DNA of 64,000 nt from Candidatus Pacearchaeota archaeon (GTDB lineage Archaea > Nanobdellota > Nanobdellia > Pacearchaeales > GW2011-AR1). Where the stretch lies: positions 158,207 through 222,206 of the forward strand of contig JBNLCO010000010.1 in the NCBI GenBank assembly GCA_050303855.1, read 5' to 3'. A program made the translations under genes and the position numbers. Below, in pieces: positions 35,541 through 56,566 of the stretch. The notes beneath the pieces were generated by a model. That model did no database searches. It had not been told where the DNA came from and saw only the letters and a list, made by a program, of their open reading frames with translations. The first letter of the stretch is position 1. The number at the start of each line of letters is the position of its first letter.

Positions 35541-36272
35541 TTAAAATTTAACATTTATTCCTCCAGATAAGAGGCAAGTAAAATTCATTATTTCTGGAGC
35601 AGGATAAGAGTCATAAAGTAATGCGGCTCCCAGTAAAAATGAAATTTTCTTTGATAGATCCAAGATCATTTTTGATTCATTAGATACCCTATAGTCTTTA
35701 AAAATACTGAGGGAGGGTTGATAATATAAGACATTTCTTATTTCAACTTTATCTTTGAATTTAAATCTCAAGGAAATGTAGTCGCTCATTCTTGTTGTGT
35801 TTAGAGTTTTGCCAATAACTAATTTTTCTTTTTCACCCATGACCAAAAATCCTAATTGCAAGCAAGAATCTATTGTAAAACGTAACCCTCCCCCATAAAC
35901 TATCCTTCTATCCACCCCAAGGGTGCGATCTAATGTTGCTTGGTAAAAGATCTCTTCTGCAATTTTTTTCCTTTGCAGATAGTTGTACCTAAAATGTACA
36001 TAAGCTGTTTCATCAGTGACACTTTCATCGCTTTTCTCATAGGATAGTGAACCTAAGCCCATAAAGAGGTGTTTGTCTTTTTTATAGGCAAGATTCGCTC
36101 CCGATTTTATGTCAATTTTGAATAACTTATCTTGGTCCAATTTACCTGTCCAAAAAACACCTCCAAATAGCCCATTTGAATCAAGATCCATACGTACATC
36201 CTCAATATTCTTTATTTGAGAAAAAATATTTGCAGGTAGAAGAATCAGAAAAAGACAATAAAATTTTTTCAT
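35541..36272 (-). CDS. secreted beta-strand-rich protein (DUF481-like outer-membrane beta-barrel fold suspected)
   Basis: Signal peptide MKKFYCLFLILLPANIFSQ, an alternating amphipathic pattern and a C-terminal aromatic (..GINVKF). Confidence 0.45.
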   Translation of the reverse strand: MKKFYCLFLILLPANIFSQIKNIEDVRMDLDSNGLFGGVFWTGKLDQDKLFKIDIKSGANLAYKKDKHLFMGLGSLSYEKSDESVTDETAYVHFRYNYLQRKKIAEEIFYQATLDRTLGVDRRIVYGGGLRFTIDSCLQLGFLVMGEKEKLVIGKTLNTTRMSDYISLRFKFKDKVEIRNVLYYQPSLSIFKDYRVSNESKMILDLSKKISFLLGAALLYDSYPAPEIMNFTCLLSGGINVKF

Positions 36273-36278
36273 TATAAT

Positions 36279-37346
36279 TTAATTAAGATTATATTTTGCG
36301 AGGGTCTTATCCCAAAGATCGCTCTCTAAGAACCGAAGTATCTCATAATTAATTTGTTTTTCTAGACTTTGATCTACGTTTATTCCAAAAGCATAGTATT
36401 GTTGATCAAAAGTCTTTGTAGATAGTCTAATATTATACCCTTTTTTACTGATATAATATTTTAATATGGGCGTATCATAAACAAAAGTTTCAAGTTCTCC
36501 ATTTTCAATAGCTTCAAGACCTTCTTCAACTGTTTCATACCCGATAAATTTTACCCCTTTTTTGTTAAGAAAATCTGCGCTTGAAGTCTTTAATATTGAA
36601 CCGACTTTGGTTTTATTAAGTTGAGATATGGAATTAACCCCGCTTTCCAATCTGGCCACCATCAATCCAGCACTATAGTTGGCAATTATTATTCCATTTA
36701 GGATAAAAACTGCAACAATCCCCCAGAAAATAGTTAATATTTTTCCAGGGCGGCTTATGGGATATTGATTGCCAAAACCAATTGTTGAAACAATCATAAA
36801 GGAGAAGAACATGCCATCTAATATTCCGTCCCCAGCATAGGATCTAAATTGTTCTGGATTAATTTTCATCTCAACACGCCAAAATATGAGACCCATAACA
36901 AAAATCAAACCCAAAATTACTGAAAAGATAGATAAATTAAGTTTCATAAAAGCTTTTGAGAAGAAATAATTAACCCAAGAGAAAGATACATTTGAGGCTA
37001 TAGAAAGACTTGAAACAAAGAAAGGGATAGTCGTTTCCAATCCCTCGGACAACCTATGGGCGTTAACAGTCATGGCTCCGATTAAAACATCAAGGGAATC
37101 TTTATTGAGTCTCTCAACAATTTTTCCTGTTGCTTCATCATAAACATTAATATAATAACTATCTTCAGACAGGTCGATGTTCCGGGAAATATTTTTCCAG
37201 AGATCTATTACTAATCCTGTTTGTTCTCCTGTTACTTCATCAATCATAACAAAAGGAGGGGTAATTGGAGCCCCTACCTTAAGTGTTTCTGATGAAAAGG
37301 CTTGCAAACAAGATAATGAAACTAAAAAAACTGCAAGTATTTTCAT
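36279..37346 (-). CDS. GluR0-type ionotropic glutamate receptor-like ligand-gated ion channel (SBP lobe S1 - M1-pore-M2 - lobe S2)
   Basis: Signal peptide, then a type-3 solute-binding fold split by two TM helices flanking a K-channel-like pore STIGFGNQYP (TxGxG selectivity-filter motif). S2 lobe at the C-terminus. Confidence 0.55.
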   Translation of the reverse strand: MKILAVFLVSLSCLQAFSSETLKVGAPITPPFVMIDEVTGEQTGLVIDLWKNISRNIDLSEDSYYINVYDEATGKIVERLNKDSLDVLIGAMTVNAHRLSEGLETTIPFFVSSLSIASNVSFSWVNYFFSKAFMKLNLSIFSVILGLIFVMGLIFWRVEMKINPEQFRSYAGDGILDGMFFSFMIVSTIGFGNQYPISRPGKILTIFWGIVAVFILNGIIIANYSAGLMVARLESGVNSISQLNKTKVGSILKTSSADFLNKKGVKFIGYETVEEGLEAIENGELETFVYDTPILKYYISKKGYNIRLSTKTFDQQYYAFGINVDQSLEKQINYEILRFLESDLWDKTLAKYNLN

Positions 37347-37372
37347 AATAAAATTTTAATTGTTAATAATAC
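37347..37372 (-). promoter_or_regulatory. conserved upstream motif TTTTAATTGTTAATAA (representative copy)
   Basis: Near-identical copies sit immediately 5' of start codons at about 40263, 40866, 45936, 49698, 53852, 56567, 62099, 62881 and 35454. Related TTTATAAACAATT occurs upstream of the plus-strand genes at 3036 and 5206. Confidence 0.5.
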
Positions 37373-54927: not shown

Positions 54928-54980
54928 GCTATGGAATTTTTGAATACATAATTTAATTTATTTAATGTTACTAATTTAAA

Positions 54981-55850
54981 CTAAAATATCTGTCCTAACA
55001 GATATATATTGAACGAATTAATAGTGCTTCCAAAACCAACCGCACAGTTTTTTAGATGTGCTGAAGGATAGTCAAAGAAATGGAGGAAGATTAATTCAGT
55101 GTATAATTTGTCTGAATTGGTTTTTTCATGATCGTACACCATGTCAACCGATAGGGCAAATTGTTTTTCTTTACCTAACTTGGTTTGCATATATCCCGAC
55201 TGGATATTTTCTCTACAATACCCAAACACAGTCACTCTTTCCTTGAATAATGAAAGATTAATTATTCCTCCTGGGCTGCTTCCCGAAAGGTAGAACCCCA
55301 AGCTTGAACCCTTATATCCAAGAACAATTTCTGATCTTAAGCTATCTCCCAGATTAGGCCCATCTTCACCTACGCCTAAACCAACCCAAAAATCATTTTG
55401 GAAACAATATTTAATATCTACGTGTTCCGTTTTTCCTGGAACCTGTCTTTGGGACATAAATGAAGCTTGAGAAGCAAGGTCAAGAGGATGAGGAGTAAAT
55501 TTGGTTATAGGTGTTGCCGAAATCCCCATTGTTGCTTTAAAGCCATAATCGGATGTATCTCCAAAACAAACATAGGGTATACCTAAACTCCATCCATCAT
55601 TACTGCTTAATTCAAGAACTGCATCATAATTTATACGCACATTTTTGTTTACATTCAAACTAAAATATGCTCCAGTTCGCATTTGAAAATCTGCATTTGA
55701 TTTGTCTAGGTTTTCGTACCCTGTTGAAAGGTAATTAAGAGCTCCCAAATAGGGAGTAACGCTAAATATCCTGTTTTCAGAGATATCCATTTGGGAATTA
55801 ACTCCTTGAGTTAAAATGGATATCAAAATAAGAAGAATTATTTTTTTCAT
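54981..55850 (-). CDS. secreted beta-barrel-like protein (alternative longer ORF to 56114 includes an N-terminal TM peptide)
   Basis: Internal Met gives signal peptide MKKIILLILISILTQGVNSQ. Beta-rich with aromatic termini. Confidence 0.45.
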   Translation of the reverse strand: MKKIILLILISILTQGVNSQMDISENRIFSVTPYLGALNYLSTGYENLDKSNADFQMRTGAYFSLNVNKNVRINYDAVLELSSNDGWSLGIPYVCFGDTSDYGFKATMGISATPITKFTPHPLDLASQASFMSQRQVPGKTEHVDIKYCFQNDFWVGLGVGEDGPNLGDSLRSEIVLGYKGSSLGFYLSGSSPGGIINLSLFKERVTVFGYCRENIQSGYMQTKLGKEKQFALSVDMVYDHEKTNSDKLYTELIFLHFFDYPSAHLKNCAVGFGSTINSFNIYLLGQIF

Positions 55851-56128
55851 TTTTTCATTTTTAATATTTGATTTATTATAATCGACAACTGAGTCAATAA
55901 AGAAGTTTAATACTTCATTTAACATGTTAAGGATTATTATGCTAAAGAATACCGCAAACACCATCCCACTTATTAAGAATGTTGTTGCGATTATCTTAAA
56001 AGCGATACGCTCAAAGATTAAAGCTAATGCGTTAAAGAAGAACATTCCAACAAGAGAGATCCAAAATAGCTTCTCTCTTAATGGAGGATCAAAGATTTTT
56101 AATTTTGTGCTCATGTTTGAGTTCTAAA

Positions 56129-56566
56129 TTAATCAAATTTATATCCAAAAGTTAGTGTAAAATTCCTAATACCTTTGTTGTCCAAGTTTATATGGAAACC
56201 TGTATAAAAAGGATCGGAAACCACAAAAGAGGCTCCAAGAACACCTCCAAATTTAAAACCAGATGTTTCGGAGTACATCCCAGAGATTCCTGTATTTAAG
56301 AAATACTCATCAGTAATCCTCCACATAAGGAAGAAATTTGAAAGGGTGTTTAAGCTGTCAAGATTATAGCTTGAGGTAACATCCACATTAAAACCAATCC
56401 CGGTTTTCTTTTTTATAGTGGATAATTCAGCACCAAGGCCAACAGATTTGTCTGCACCTCCTGATATTGAAAGTCCAGCAAAACCAATCCGATCTTTACT
56501 ATATTGAGCAAATGTTGTTGATACAACGAAAATAACTAAAATTGAAGTGAAAATTAATTTTTTCAT
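56129..56566 (-). CDS. small OMP-like beta-barrel domain protein (OmpA-N/OMP_b-brl-like)
   Basis: Signal peptide ..TTFAQ, alternating beta-strand pattern, C-terminal ..TFGYKFD. Confidence 0.45.
   Translation of the reverse strand: MKKLIFTSILVIFVVSTTFAQYSKDRIGFAGLSISGGADKSVGLGAELSTIKKKTGIGFNVDVTSSYNLDSLNTLSNFFLMWRITDEYFLNTGISGMYSETSGFKFGGVLGASFVVSDPFYTGFHINLDNKGIRNFTLTFGYKFD

Follow-up and report, generated by a model that had tools for sequence, protein, structure and literature searches.

The question raised by this locus is whether an archaeon has acquired a set of bacterial envelope genes or whether its contig is chimeric. The original prediction posed these two alternatives and they were the right ones, but an archaeon with an adopted envelope toolkit fits poorly with the bacterial leaders, terminators and Q-rule signal peptides and the non-archaeal Arg codons that we find. 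In the 64-kb window (the whole stretch of DNA that was analysed, part of a 268-kb contig) a single point, at about 24.0 kb, marks a change in gene content, in expression signals and in codon usage. We consider it roughly 85-90% probable that the block, which begins at about 24.05 kb and continues to the window's end, is unadapted Bacteroidota DNA. It would then be a chromosome stretch of a divergent, AT-rich Bacteroidota lineage that retained its native bacterial expression and export signals, and would reflect a chimera in the assembly or else a cross-domain insertion of very recent date, not a bacterial envelope evolved by an archaeon.

The final DNA of the archaeal regime is a core gene cluster, followed by the junction and the first gene of the block:

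20593..23945, + strand, archaeal core cluster with L21e, RpoF/Rpb4, DUF655, S13, S4, S11 and RpoD (Pfam)
23946..24050, no strand, junction zone between two convergent genes, an intergenic gap with the rpoD stop and oligo-T on one side and the terminator of ORF94 on the other (sequence)
24064..24103, - strand, bacterial-type intrinsic terminator of ORF94, hairpin plus U8 (fold dG -17.1 kcal/mol, z -3.2; inverted repeat I9)
24110..24394, - strand, ORF94, the first block gene, spanning the gap between Logan contigs L002 and L003 (open reading frame)

That archaeal ribosomal and RNA polymerase genes adjoin the block, as had been claimed, is borne out by the Pfam assignments from L21e to RpoD and by uS13, whose best structural match is to archaeal ribosome structures. 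RpoN is also among these neighbours. At 0-24 kb the genes are preceded by an archaeal TATA box, about 26 nt ahead of the ATG and, for L21e and RpoD, at about -30 to -22, and a TATA-like box at -34 to -20 is found for 10 of the 27 archaeal-side genes compared to 4 of the 39 block genes. The claim that the archaeal genes share the upstream motif TTATTAACAATTAAAA with the block was mistaken, as every exact or near-exact copy lies within 24-64 kb on the gene strand, which carries all of the block genes, whereas the archaeal genes use the TATA-type signal. The exact copies, together with one secreted protein, are:

37354-37369, - strand, leader motif TTATTAACAATTAAAA (gene-strand sense), ending 8 nt before an ATG (sequence)
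40270-40285 and 53862-53877, further exact copies of TTATTAACAATTAAAA (sequence)
25420..26283, - strand, secreted protein with a Q-rule signal peptide ending ..GTSA|Q (translation) and no family match in Pfam

At the right distance and with up to three mismatches, the motif precedes 18 of the 39 block genes and 1 of the 27 genes at 0-24 kb, against a background rate of 2.2%. The block contains three exact copies of a longer 21-mer form of the leader, ATTATTAACAATTAAAATTTT. A search of 596 Gb of GTDB genomes gave 34 matches, 29 of them in Bacteroidota, and in about 25 of these 29 an ORF with an ATG start follows 1-9 nt downstream. This agrees with the A-rich initiation regions of this phylum, which lack a Shine-Dalgarno sequence (PMC6847099). 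Canonical hairpin-plus-U terminators follow directly past stop codons at 30682-30659 (a strong one, after the Major vault protein homologue), 26345-26326, 44838-44810 (13-bp stem, within the ABC transporter region), 56798-56764 and 24103-24064, while a search of 4-24 kb found none comparable. The signal peptides had been said to end in ..FSQ or ..FAQ as in Bacteroidetes; with ..SAQ added this is accurate, and Gln occupies +1 in six of the seven type-I signal peptides of the block. This Q-rule, in which Gln is exposed after cleavage, is described as specific to Bacteroidetes (PMC5837995).

The same origin becomes apparent when looking at the central operon of the block, listed here in its order of transcription:

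50563..52275, - strand, secreted binding-protein-like protein with a degenerate OmpA_C domain, 570 aa, first gene of the operon (signal ..TFA|Q)
49791..50543, - strand, VWA-domain lipoprotein (VWA E 6.5e-12) with lipobox ..IAG|C at an internal ATG
48144..49697, - strand, membrane-anchored substrate-binding-like domain fused to OmpA_C, 517 aa (PF00691 E 6.7e-16)
47272-48141, - strand, XpaC/Halogen_Hydrol-like membrane protein (the positional orthologue on the SM23-78 contig described below matches Halogen_Hydrol)
46043-47242, - strand, TelA (E 2.8e-39)
44865-45935, - strand, NMT1-type binding protein of an ABC transporter, signal ..SSA|Q (Pfam)
43739-44782, - strand, ABC transporter permease (Pfam)
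42850-43737, - strand, ABC transporter ATPase (Pfam)
40993..42816, - strand, ARC/Mpa-like AAA ATPase, last gene of the conserved operon (AAA E 1.4e-29; 282 bits to the proteasome-ATPase model, under its cut-off)

The whole run of nine genes (40993-52275) has collinear counterparts, 30-66% identical, on a bacterial contig of 600 kb (ERZ25039527 contig_49). The first gene is 55% identical to its orthologue there over 576 aa, TelA and the XpaC-like protein 30-34%, the ABC transporter 54-66% and the AAA ATPase, present there as in the window, 47%. The VWA protein is 45-47% identical to those of this contig and of the SM23-78 contig. Without the AAA ATPase, eight of the nine genes recur in Reichenbachiella sp. 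(GCA_039942635.1), where a DUF481 gene is adjacent, and in both genomes the order matches the window from the 570-aa weak-OmpA_C protein to the ATPase, with an OmpA_C protein of about 515 aa third and a membrane protein of about 285 aa fourth. The window copy differs from theirs in being only about 50% identical to its best matches, in its GC (33% versus 45%) and in lying within a 40-kb single-strand array rich in ORFans. Two OmpA_C proteins had been predicted. The domain stands in 48144-49697, for which the NCBI family name is 'phosphate ABC transporter substrate-binding/OmpA family protein' and the 154 homologues include named best matches in Bacteroidales and Reichenbachiella at 46-50% identity. 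In 50563-52275 the match is weak and sub-threshold (24.7 bits vs a cut-off of 27.2), and the gene is orthologous by position to the one labelled 'OmpA (weak)' in this operon of other genomes. Because the ATTATTAACAATTAAAATTTT leader, the Q-rule peptides, the hairpin-plus-U terminators and the operon synteny all point the same way, we assign the block to Bacteroidota; the resemblance originally noted was correct and is far stronger than that first reading of the sequence could see.

Further genes of the block are:

30699..33302, - strand, Major vault protein homologue (MVP_shoulder E 3.5e-21, Vault_3 E 1.5e-9)
36279..37346, - strand, GluR0-like ligand-gated channel with substrate-binding domain and K-channel pore (Ion_trans_2, Lig_chan, SBP_bac_3)
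38199..38906, - strand, PspA/IM30 membrane-stress protein (PF04012 E 3.2e-26)
39001-40260, protein with a tail-fibre chaperone (Peptidase_S74) domain (Pfam, PHROGs)

A mobile or extrachromosomal element (phage, plasmid or giant element) that brought a promoter-like motif of its own and was integrated or co-assembled beside the archaeal chromosome could account for the Peptidase_S74 domain, for about 40 genes on one strand of which many are ORFans or small membrane proteins, and for the conserved upstream motif; elements often resemble their hosts in composition, as the block resembles its neighbouring DNA. We nevertheless regard this as very improbable. Ten block proteins compared to PHROGs gave no match except the S74 domain, the Pfam scans found no capsid, terminase, replication, partition or integrase family, and two block proteins had no relatives in IMG/VR. 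Moreover, ordinary Bacteroidota have the central nine genes as an operon in their chromosomes, and the motif is a leader of Bacteroidota in general and is not specific to an element.

The composition of the two sides is close. The AT-richness had rightly been described as common to both, with GC even throughout the window at 0.29-0.37. The correlation of tetranucleotide usage across the junction is 0.835, compared to 0.84 and 0.85 within the sides and -0.2 to 0.77 for 30 control loci. Karlin delta* across the junction is 47 (61-307 in controls), CpG o/e is about 0.5 and CC/GG about 1.38 on both sides, and no 4-mer change-point lies at 24 kb. The suggested comparison of 0-24 with 24-64 kb thus gave a uniform result that favours continuity over chimerism, and likeness as high across the junction as within the sides argues against an artefact. 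Composition alone, though, cannot separate a chimera from a recent transfer. Synonymous codon usage does tell the sides apart, with a leave-one-out balanced accuracy of 0.86 versus at most 0.68 when labels are random. Of all contiguous splits, the one that performs best lies exactly ahead of 24110, and splits inside the block score about 0.5. Among Arg codons, AGA falls from 67% on the archaeal side (0-24 kb) to 43% in the block, and CGT rises from 3.6% to 14.7%. In the first seven block genes (24.1-30.6 kb) codon usage is intermediate and nearly neutral and leader motifs are few, which also argues against an artefact.

These intermediate genes, the shared di- and tetranucleotide signature and a TATA-like box at -32 of 24412-24978 would also suit an old, established acquisition, in which an archaeon, perhaps one with two membranes or an episymbiont, uses the bacterial-type envelope toolkit and the composition of the block has been assimilated. 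However, signals without an archaeal role should erode over a long residence, and here three perfect 21-mer leaders with about 18 near-copies, the hairpin terminators and the Q-rule peptides are all still present, which speaks against such an acquisition, as does the strong difference in Arg codon usage. Pfam scans of the 64-kb window also found no BamA/Omp85, Lol or peptidoglycan-synthesis gene, and peptidoglycan is what OmpA_C requires. We find this reading hard to credit.

This leaves unadapted Bacteroidota DNA joined to archaeal DNA either in the assembly or in a cell. Chimeric contigs are in our judgement far more common than 40-kb cross-domain insertions, and we favour a chimera of two organisms from one sample, putting the chance of such an artefactual join at about even. 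As in cross-domain chimeric contigs of MAGs and single-cell genomes, content, signals and codon usage switch at one point, but here composition is constant, and the two parts meet cleanly between genes in a stretch that an independent k-mer assembly also contains. In that k=31 assembly of run SRR36185838, Logan contig L002 is 100% identical to window 15075-24157 and so extends from the archaeal genes past the junction zone, arguing against an artefact. The sole Logan gap, 24158-24387 (230 nt) between L002 and L003, lies inside ORF94. This gene forms one coherent unit of leader, open frame, repeat motif across the gap edge, stop codon and terminator; its protein was found in a representative library, and the repeat motif it has in common with P0134 aligns over residues 64-91 and so bridges the Logan break (79/80). 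A gap placed within such a unit again weighs against an artefact. The ORF94 terminator begins 6 nt past its stop codon, and the junction spares both flanking genes and both their terminators, which a random break in about 90% coding DNA would rarely do.

The L002 crossing, the coherence of ORF94 and the clean junction would fit a real junction, with at least 40 kb of a Bacteroidota chromosome very recently inserted just downstream of the archaeal rpoD, or with archaeal DNA inserted into a bacterium, a possibility we take seriously at less than even odds. The block ORFs are all intact and tightly packed, and gene transfers are reportedly more frequent between genomes of similar composition, which would fit the matching signatures. 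Additionally, a contig of 70 kb from the genome deposited as 'Euryarchaeota archaeon SM23-78' (LSSJ01000021.1, GCA_001595785.1) carries a 43%-identity family member and most of the operon. Eight operon genes without the AAA ATPase have the same order there, six of them 43-55% identical by BLASTP and TelA and the XpaC-like gene recognised by Pfam family and position only, and their neighbours, as in the window, are ORFans for small membrane proteins and lipoproteins arrayed on a single strand. That contig differs in its strong GGAGG ribosome-binding sites, the absence of a Bacteroidota-type leader, a GC of 41% and flanking ORFans unrelated to those of the window; the genome is archaeal by deposition, and the 21.5 kb examined held no archaeal marker. 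Other points also count against a real insertion. The prior for an unameliorated cross-domain insertion of 40 kb is very low, the boundary has no integrase, transposase, phage or other mobile-element gene (Pfam scans, PHROGs) and no tRNA attachment site, the usual archaeal order S13-S4-S11-RpoD-L18e-L13-S9 is broken at the insertion point, and the right-hand end of the block lies outside the window. L002 also comes from the same reads, so that chimeric molecules, for example from whole-genome amplification, would mislead both assemblies. If the junction were real, this would be recent, unadapted DNA not integrated into archaeal cell biology. The genes would keep their donor signals and would probably be silent or useless cargo in an archaeon without peptidoglycan, BAM or Lol, and the size of the transfer would suggest intimate contact of the two organisms.

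Whichever way the block was joined, its envelope proteins would fit a diderm, peptidoglycan-containing Bacteroidota cell. They would be exported via Sec and either cut by signal peptidase I right before the Gln or lipidated at the lipobox Cys; barrels with an aromatic last residue would insert into the outer membrane, and OmpA_C domains would act as tethers to peptidoglycan. The TelA / ABC-transporter / VWA / OmpA_C / AAA operon is probably an envelope-stress or uptake module. We rejected 48144-49697 and 50563-52275 as barrels, as each joins a periplasmic substrate-binding-like domain to one that binds peptidoglycan. At least three secreted proteins had been proposed as outer-membrane barrels:

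35541..36272, - strand, DUF481 outer-membrane beta-barrel family protein, 243 aa (PF04338 E 3.7e-10)
54981..55850, - strand, candidate beta-barrel, 289 aa from an internal ATG (signal ..VNS|Q, end ..LGQIF)
56129..56566, - strand, candidate small (about 8-strand) beta-barrel, 145 aa (signal ..TFA|Q, end ..FGYKFD)

The first belongs to such a barrel family. It scores 40.6 bits against PF04338 (cut-off 21.1) over 16-202 of 210 profile positions, and this near-full-length match, its signal peptide (..IFS|Q) and its C-terminal Phe (...GGINVKF) suggest a member of DUF481, the outer-membrane barrel family of the E. coli YdiY type. It differs from the family by its strong divergence, with a single other homologue, at 31% identity, in a word-indexed search of 5.8 billion proteins. 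The other two, each with a signal peptide and an aromatic C-terminus, are only plausible as barrels. Neither has a match in Pfam, NCBIfam or the PDB, and their single-sequence AlphaFold (AF2) models are too poor for use (pLDDT 31 for 54981-55850 and 40 for 56129-56566), the latter having beta hairpins in its C-terminal half. Their beta-periodicity z is modest, at 1.9 and 1.4, respectively, compared to 2.4 for the DUF481 protein and at most 1.1 for controls.

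We read the block at 24-64 kb of the window as unadapted DNA from Bacteroidota, coding for envelope proteins that belong in a diderm bacterium, and we put the probability of this at roughly 0.85 to 0.9. The reading follows from native signals that the block still carries, namely its leader sequences, its Gln-exposing signal peptides, its terminators, its codon usage and the synteny of one operon. The archaeal side (0-24 kb) holds sugar and glycan genes, SecD/SecF, three tRNAs with a free-standing 5S rRNA and then RpoN, L21e, RpoF/Rpb4, DUF655, S13, S4, S11 and RpoD. The archaeal ribosomal and RNA polymerase genes that the original prediction placed beside the block are borne out by this L21e-RpoD cluster, in which uS13 has archaeal ribosome structures as its best match. 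From 24110 onwards, all credible genes of the window are on the minus strand. The features needed here are as follows.

17330-17417 (-), 19150-19265 (+), 20033-20233 (-): tRNA, 5S rRNA and rpoN entries of the archaeal side
24110-24394 (-): ORF94, first gene of the block
30699-33302 (-): 867-aa homologue of the eukaryotic major vault protein (MVP_shoulder E 3.5e-21, Vault_3 E 1.5e-9, weak Vault_2)
33436-35106 (-): 556-aa highly acidic protein with tandem repeats of ~58 aa (174-nt DNA repeats, ~76% identity)
35541-36272 (-): DUF481 protein
36279-37346 (-): prokaryotic GluR0-type ligand-gated channel, with a K-channel pore inserted into its periplasmic binding domain
40993-52275 (-): conserved operon of nine genes
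54981-55850 (-) and 56129-56566 (-): candidate barrels of 289 aa and 145 aa
58034-58348, 59250-59789 and 62130-62381 (-): three small multi-pass membrane proteins

One archaeal-side tRNA, of 88 nt, had its anticodon left uncalled by ARAGORN and possibly contains an intron.

The start signals were compared by reading the 45 nt upstream of 67 candidate starts, which represent 66 genes because 54981 was counted with both of its possible ATGs. Many genes of the archaeal side have a cTTTAAAAA-like box at about -30 to -22, which on its sequence and position would be an archaeal TATA box serving leaderless or short-leader transcripts. Genes of the block have instead the leader motif TTATTAACAATTAAAAtttt, which ends 5-12 nt upstream of the ATG. 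Allowing up to 3 mismatches at the right distance, the leader precedes 18 of the 39 block genes and 1 of the 27 archaeal-side genes (background 2.2%), whereas a TATA-like box at -34 to -20 is found before 4/39 and 10/27, respectively. All exact and near-exact copies of the leader fall within the block and on the gene strand, so the upstream motif is not common to the archaeal and the bacterial-type genes as had been claimed. These differences argue against the block being a native part of the archaeal genome, a reading that has in its favor the same oligonucleotide signature on both sides. A few block genes have GGAG sites (at 58-62 kb and at 37363). Most have no Shine-Dalgarno site, and the genes of the three small membrane proteins at 58-62 kb are preceded by almost the same 30 nt, AATAATAATTAAATTATAGGAGATTTTATT-ATG, with a GGAG site in it.

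The leader also points to a source. We scanned its exact 21-mer ATTATTAACAATTAAAATTTT, found in the window at 37354, 40270 and 53862, against one genome per GTDB species and obtained 34 loci, 29 of them in Bacteroidota (including Bacteroidales, Chryseobacterium, Saprospiraceae, Schleiferiaceae, Olleya and Arenibacter). The scan carries little weight for archaea, since few of the genomes in that collection are AT-rich archaeal ones. In about 25 Bacteroidota genomes of different orders the 21-mer lies 1-9 nt (mostly 4-9) 5' of an ATG, and the genes that follow it are unrelated (L35, S15, thioredoxin, a sigma factor, lipoproteins). This suggests that it is a strongly preferred initiation-region sequence in Bacteroidota, and the pattern agrees with the description of their initiation regions as lacking Shine-Dalgarno sites and being A-rich or A/T-rich (PMC6847099).

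The export and termination signals are of the same kind. Of seven type-I signal peptides, with cleavage sites placed by eye, six expose Gln at +1 (IFS|Q, TFA|Q twice, TSA|Q, SSA|Q and VNS|Q), and the Bacteroidetes-like ..FSQ and ..FAQ ends that had been noticed are confirmed. Gln at +1 after signal-peptidase-I cleavage, the Q-rule, has been described as Bacteroidetes-specific (PMC5837995). Six further block proteins have classical lipoboxes. Strong hairpin-plus-U terminators stand 3' of stop codons at 26345-26326, 30682-30659, 44838-44810 and 56798-56764, and ORF94 has one at 24103-24064 (dG -17.1, z -3.2, followed by U8); on the archaeal side there were none beyond chance.

Synonymous codon usage separates the two sides with a leave-one-out balanced accuracy of 0.86, compared to a mean of 0.50 and a maximum of 0.68 for random labels. 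The best contiguous split falls immediately before 24110 and splits within the block score about 0.5, which again speaks against a native block. The difference is easily seen in the Arg codons, where AGA falls from 67% on the archaeal side to 43% in the block while CGT rises from 3.6% to 14.7% and CGC from 0.6% to 6.7%. The seven block genes nearest the junction (24110-30572) are nearly codon-neutral and mostly without the leader, and one of them (24412-24978) is preceded by a TATA-like box at -32; this stretch seems to fall between the two regimes.

The nine operon genes are collinear with genes on a 600-kb bacterial contig (ERZ25039527 contig_49), with identities of 30-66%, and their neighbors there are TonB_C and CarboxypepD_reg genes. 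The order, starting from 50563-52275, is a binding-protein-like gene with a weak OmpA_C domain, a VWA lipoprotein, a second binding-protein-like gene with OmpA_C (48144-49697), an XpaC-like gene, TelA, an NMT1-type binding protein, a permease, an ATPase and an ARC-like AAA gene (40993-42816). A Reichenbachiella sp. has eight of these genes, lacks the AAA ATPase, and has a DUF481 gene adjacent there too. Most of the operon, including a homologue of the 517-aa OmpA_C protein (48144-49697) at 43% identity, is also found on a 70-kb contig assigned to 'Euryarchaeota archaeon SM23-78'. Among named organisms, the 517-aa protein has its best matches in Bacteroidales and Reichenbachiella. On the SM23-78 contig (GCA_001595785.1, LSSJ01000021.1, positions 1-21575) the TelA/ABC/VWA/OmpA_C operon is embedded among some 30 ORFans, small membrane proteins and lipoproteins encoded on one strand and preceded by strong AAAGGAGG (GGAGG) sites, together with ankyrin and Glyco_hydro_17 genes. 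Either the contig was mis-binned or this is another archaeal genome with the operon.

Two OmpA_C proteins had been proposed. The domain is clear in 48144-49697 (PF00691, 58.9 bits against a gathering cut-off of 27.2), where residues 405-515 are also matched below cut-off by the NCBIfam Pal, MotB and YiaD models. In 50563-52275 it scores 24.7 bits and thus stays under the same cut-off, and the orthologues on the 600-kb bacterial and SM23-78 contigs are likewise weak or negative. Both proteins combine a periplasmic binding-protein-like domain with a peptidoglycan-binding domain, a putative one in 50563-52275, and are not barrels.

Of the three beta-barrels claimed, the one at 35541-36272 stands as a predicted barrel. 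It matches PF04338 (DUF481) with 40.6 bits against a cut-off of 21.1 (E 3.7e-10, profile positions 16-202 of 210), its translation reads as a Sec signal peptide MKKFYCLFLILLPANIFS|Q and a C-terminus ...GGINVKF with an aromatic beta-signal, and its beta-periodicity (z 2.4) was the highest among 12 proteins compared, with controls at or below 1.1. The other two are plausible candidates. Neither has a significant match in Pfam, NCBIfam or the PDB, and the best hit, to the NCBIfam TDE1717 barrel family (E 0.04), covers the signal-peptide region only. We tried 56129-56566 as a small 8-stranded barrel of the OmpX/OmpW/OMP_b-brl type and 54981-55850 as a larger one. Their C-termini are aromatic (FGYKFD and LGQIF, respectively), and their beta-periodicity against shuffles is modest (z 1.4 and 1.9). 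Single-sequence AF2 models are all-beta but show hairpins only, at a confidence too low for use (pLDDT 40 and 31). The DUF481 protein has a single database homologue, at 31% identity, whose gene context is unrelated (a Ppx-like neighbor). Ten window proteins, drawn from the two sides of the junction, were looked up and all proved to be singletons at 90% identity; together with the 31% this makes the source lineage of the block a divergent one. The GluR0-type channel gene lies directly upstream of the DUF481 gene with a spacing of 7 nt.

None of this is visible in bulk composition. GC in 2-kb steps runs from 0.29 to 0.37, so the window is uniformly AT-rich, and the block resembles the archaeal side in this as first described. 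Tetranucleotide usage correlates at 0.835 across the junction and at 0.84 and 0.85 within the two sides, compared to -0.2 to 0.77 for 30 control loci, and the Karlin delta* across the junction is 47 (controls 61-307). The dinucleotide biases are alike as well (CpG o/e about 0.5, GpC about 0.95, CC/GG about 1.38), and a strand-symmetric 4-mer classifier gave no peak at 24 kb. Uniform composition had been put forward as evidence against a chimera, and GC, di- and tetranucleotide and 4-mer tests do show no break. However, a chimera and a recent transfer would look alike in composition because both need a compositionally similar partner, and we set aside the tetra- and dinucleotide and 4-mer change-point tests as chimera detectors. 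The block was slightly closer to bacterial controls in 27 of 30 tetranucleotide comparisons, and CTAG is half as dense in it (0.75 per kb vs 1.7 per kb); other 4-base palindromes were too noisy. Composition argues against nothing having changed. It was the signals close to the genes (leader, Q-rule, terminators, codon choice) that exposed a regime change which GC and tetranucleotides missed entirely.

Whether the contig is chimeric is to us an even bet. A junction that is real and very recent has an appreciable probability, short of even, and in addition to the shared composition it is favored by several signs of physical continuity. In Logan, an independent k=31 assembly of run SRR36185838 (contigs of 1.6-10 kb, the rightmost reaching 324 nt beyond the window), one contig covers 15075-24157 and the next 24388-34666, both at 100% identity. 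The first runs from archaeal genes across the intergenic junction and the terminator into ORF94, of which it includes the stop and the final 15 codons. The gap of 230 nt within ORF94 has a counterpart of 188 nt at 34.7 kb in a repeat-rich gene, so short gaps are ordinary in this assembly. ORF94 is itself coherent: a leader of the block type is followed by 94 open codons, a stop and the terminator, and in its residues 64-91 a repeat motif aligns on either side of the gap edge. This motif, of about 50 aa, is matched by the C-terminal third of ORF94 (GDSFEFYLYFLNSGDFFKILLPPQKLYH) and occurs in five copies in an unannotated 247-aa database protein. The junction (23946-24050) is a clean convergent intergenic gap with both flanking genes and their terminators intact. 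Together the crossing contig, the coherence of ORF94 and the clean gap argue against a simple assembler error and are still compatible with chimeric library molecules.

On the other side, the regime change is abrupt, there is no integrase or other mobile-element gene at the boundary, and the prior probability of such an event is low, all of which speaks for an artefact or a very recent arrival. The usual archaeal gene order is S13-S4-S11-RpoD-L18e, and that it is broken here counts in the same direction. The rpoN gene lies upstream of L21e on the opposite strand and not downstream of rpoD, so the conserved cluster was already rearranged in this lineage. We also considered a 17-nt exact direct repeat, ATTTTGCAAAAAAAATA, which brackets the junction at 23920-23936 (last rpoD codons) and 24053-24069 (ORF94 terminator region), as a footprint of recombination or of a mis-join. 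Both copies are present and merely 133 nt apart, so that the repeat accounts for neither, and it may be chance in low-complexity sequence.

An old functional acquisition is highly improbable, as the unadapted signals argue against long residence. A phage or other mobile element as the origin is similarly improbable: among ten block proteins scanned against PHROGs the sole match was an S74 chaperone domain, two queried in IMG/VR had no viral-contig relatives, and these scans found no structural, replication or integration genes. No BamA, rRNA, bacterial ribosomal protein or core gene, or outer-membrane biogenesis gene was found within 24-64 kb. The idea of an archaeon with an evolved bacterial-type outer membrane has no support in the data, whether the join is an artefact or real, and a search of the literature on OmpA or outer-membrane genes in DPANN archaea gave no relevant result.

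If the junction is real, a living archaeon or Bacteroidota bacterium would carry a freshly inserted cross-domain block of tens of kb with the donor signals untouched, which we hold slightly more doubtfully than the bare reality of the join. It would record a very recent and very large insertion, give direct genomic evidence that the archaeon and the Bacteroidota are intimately associated, and indicate that an uncultured archaeon and a divergent Bacteroidota lineage live in close physical contact. We know of no larger unameliorated cross-domain transfer. The SM23-78 operon would then hint at repeated crossing of the domain boundary by an envelope module. If it is an artefact, a public assembly contains a 268-kb contig of two domains that should be flagged and that would bring outer-membrane, OmpA_C and vault-protein genes into archaeal gene catalogues as contaminants.

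Some further contents of the block deserve mention. The vault homologue matched no NCBIfam model and has no relative in IMG/VR, and a strong intrinsic terminator lies directly 3' of its gene. The 556-aa repeat protein has a weak DUF5363 match as its sole family assignment, and its repeats coincide with the Logan break at 34667-34854. At 37363-42816 (-), PspA/IM30 adjoins a 277-aa acidic protein of unknown family, a lipoprotein with the S74 chaperone domain and the ARC/Mpa-like AAA ATPase, and together they may form a membrane-stress module joined to the conserved operon.
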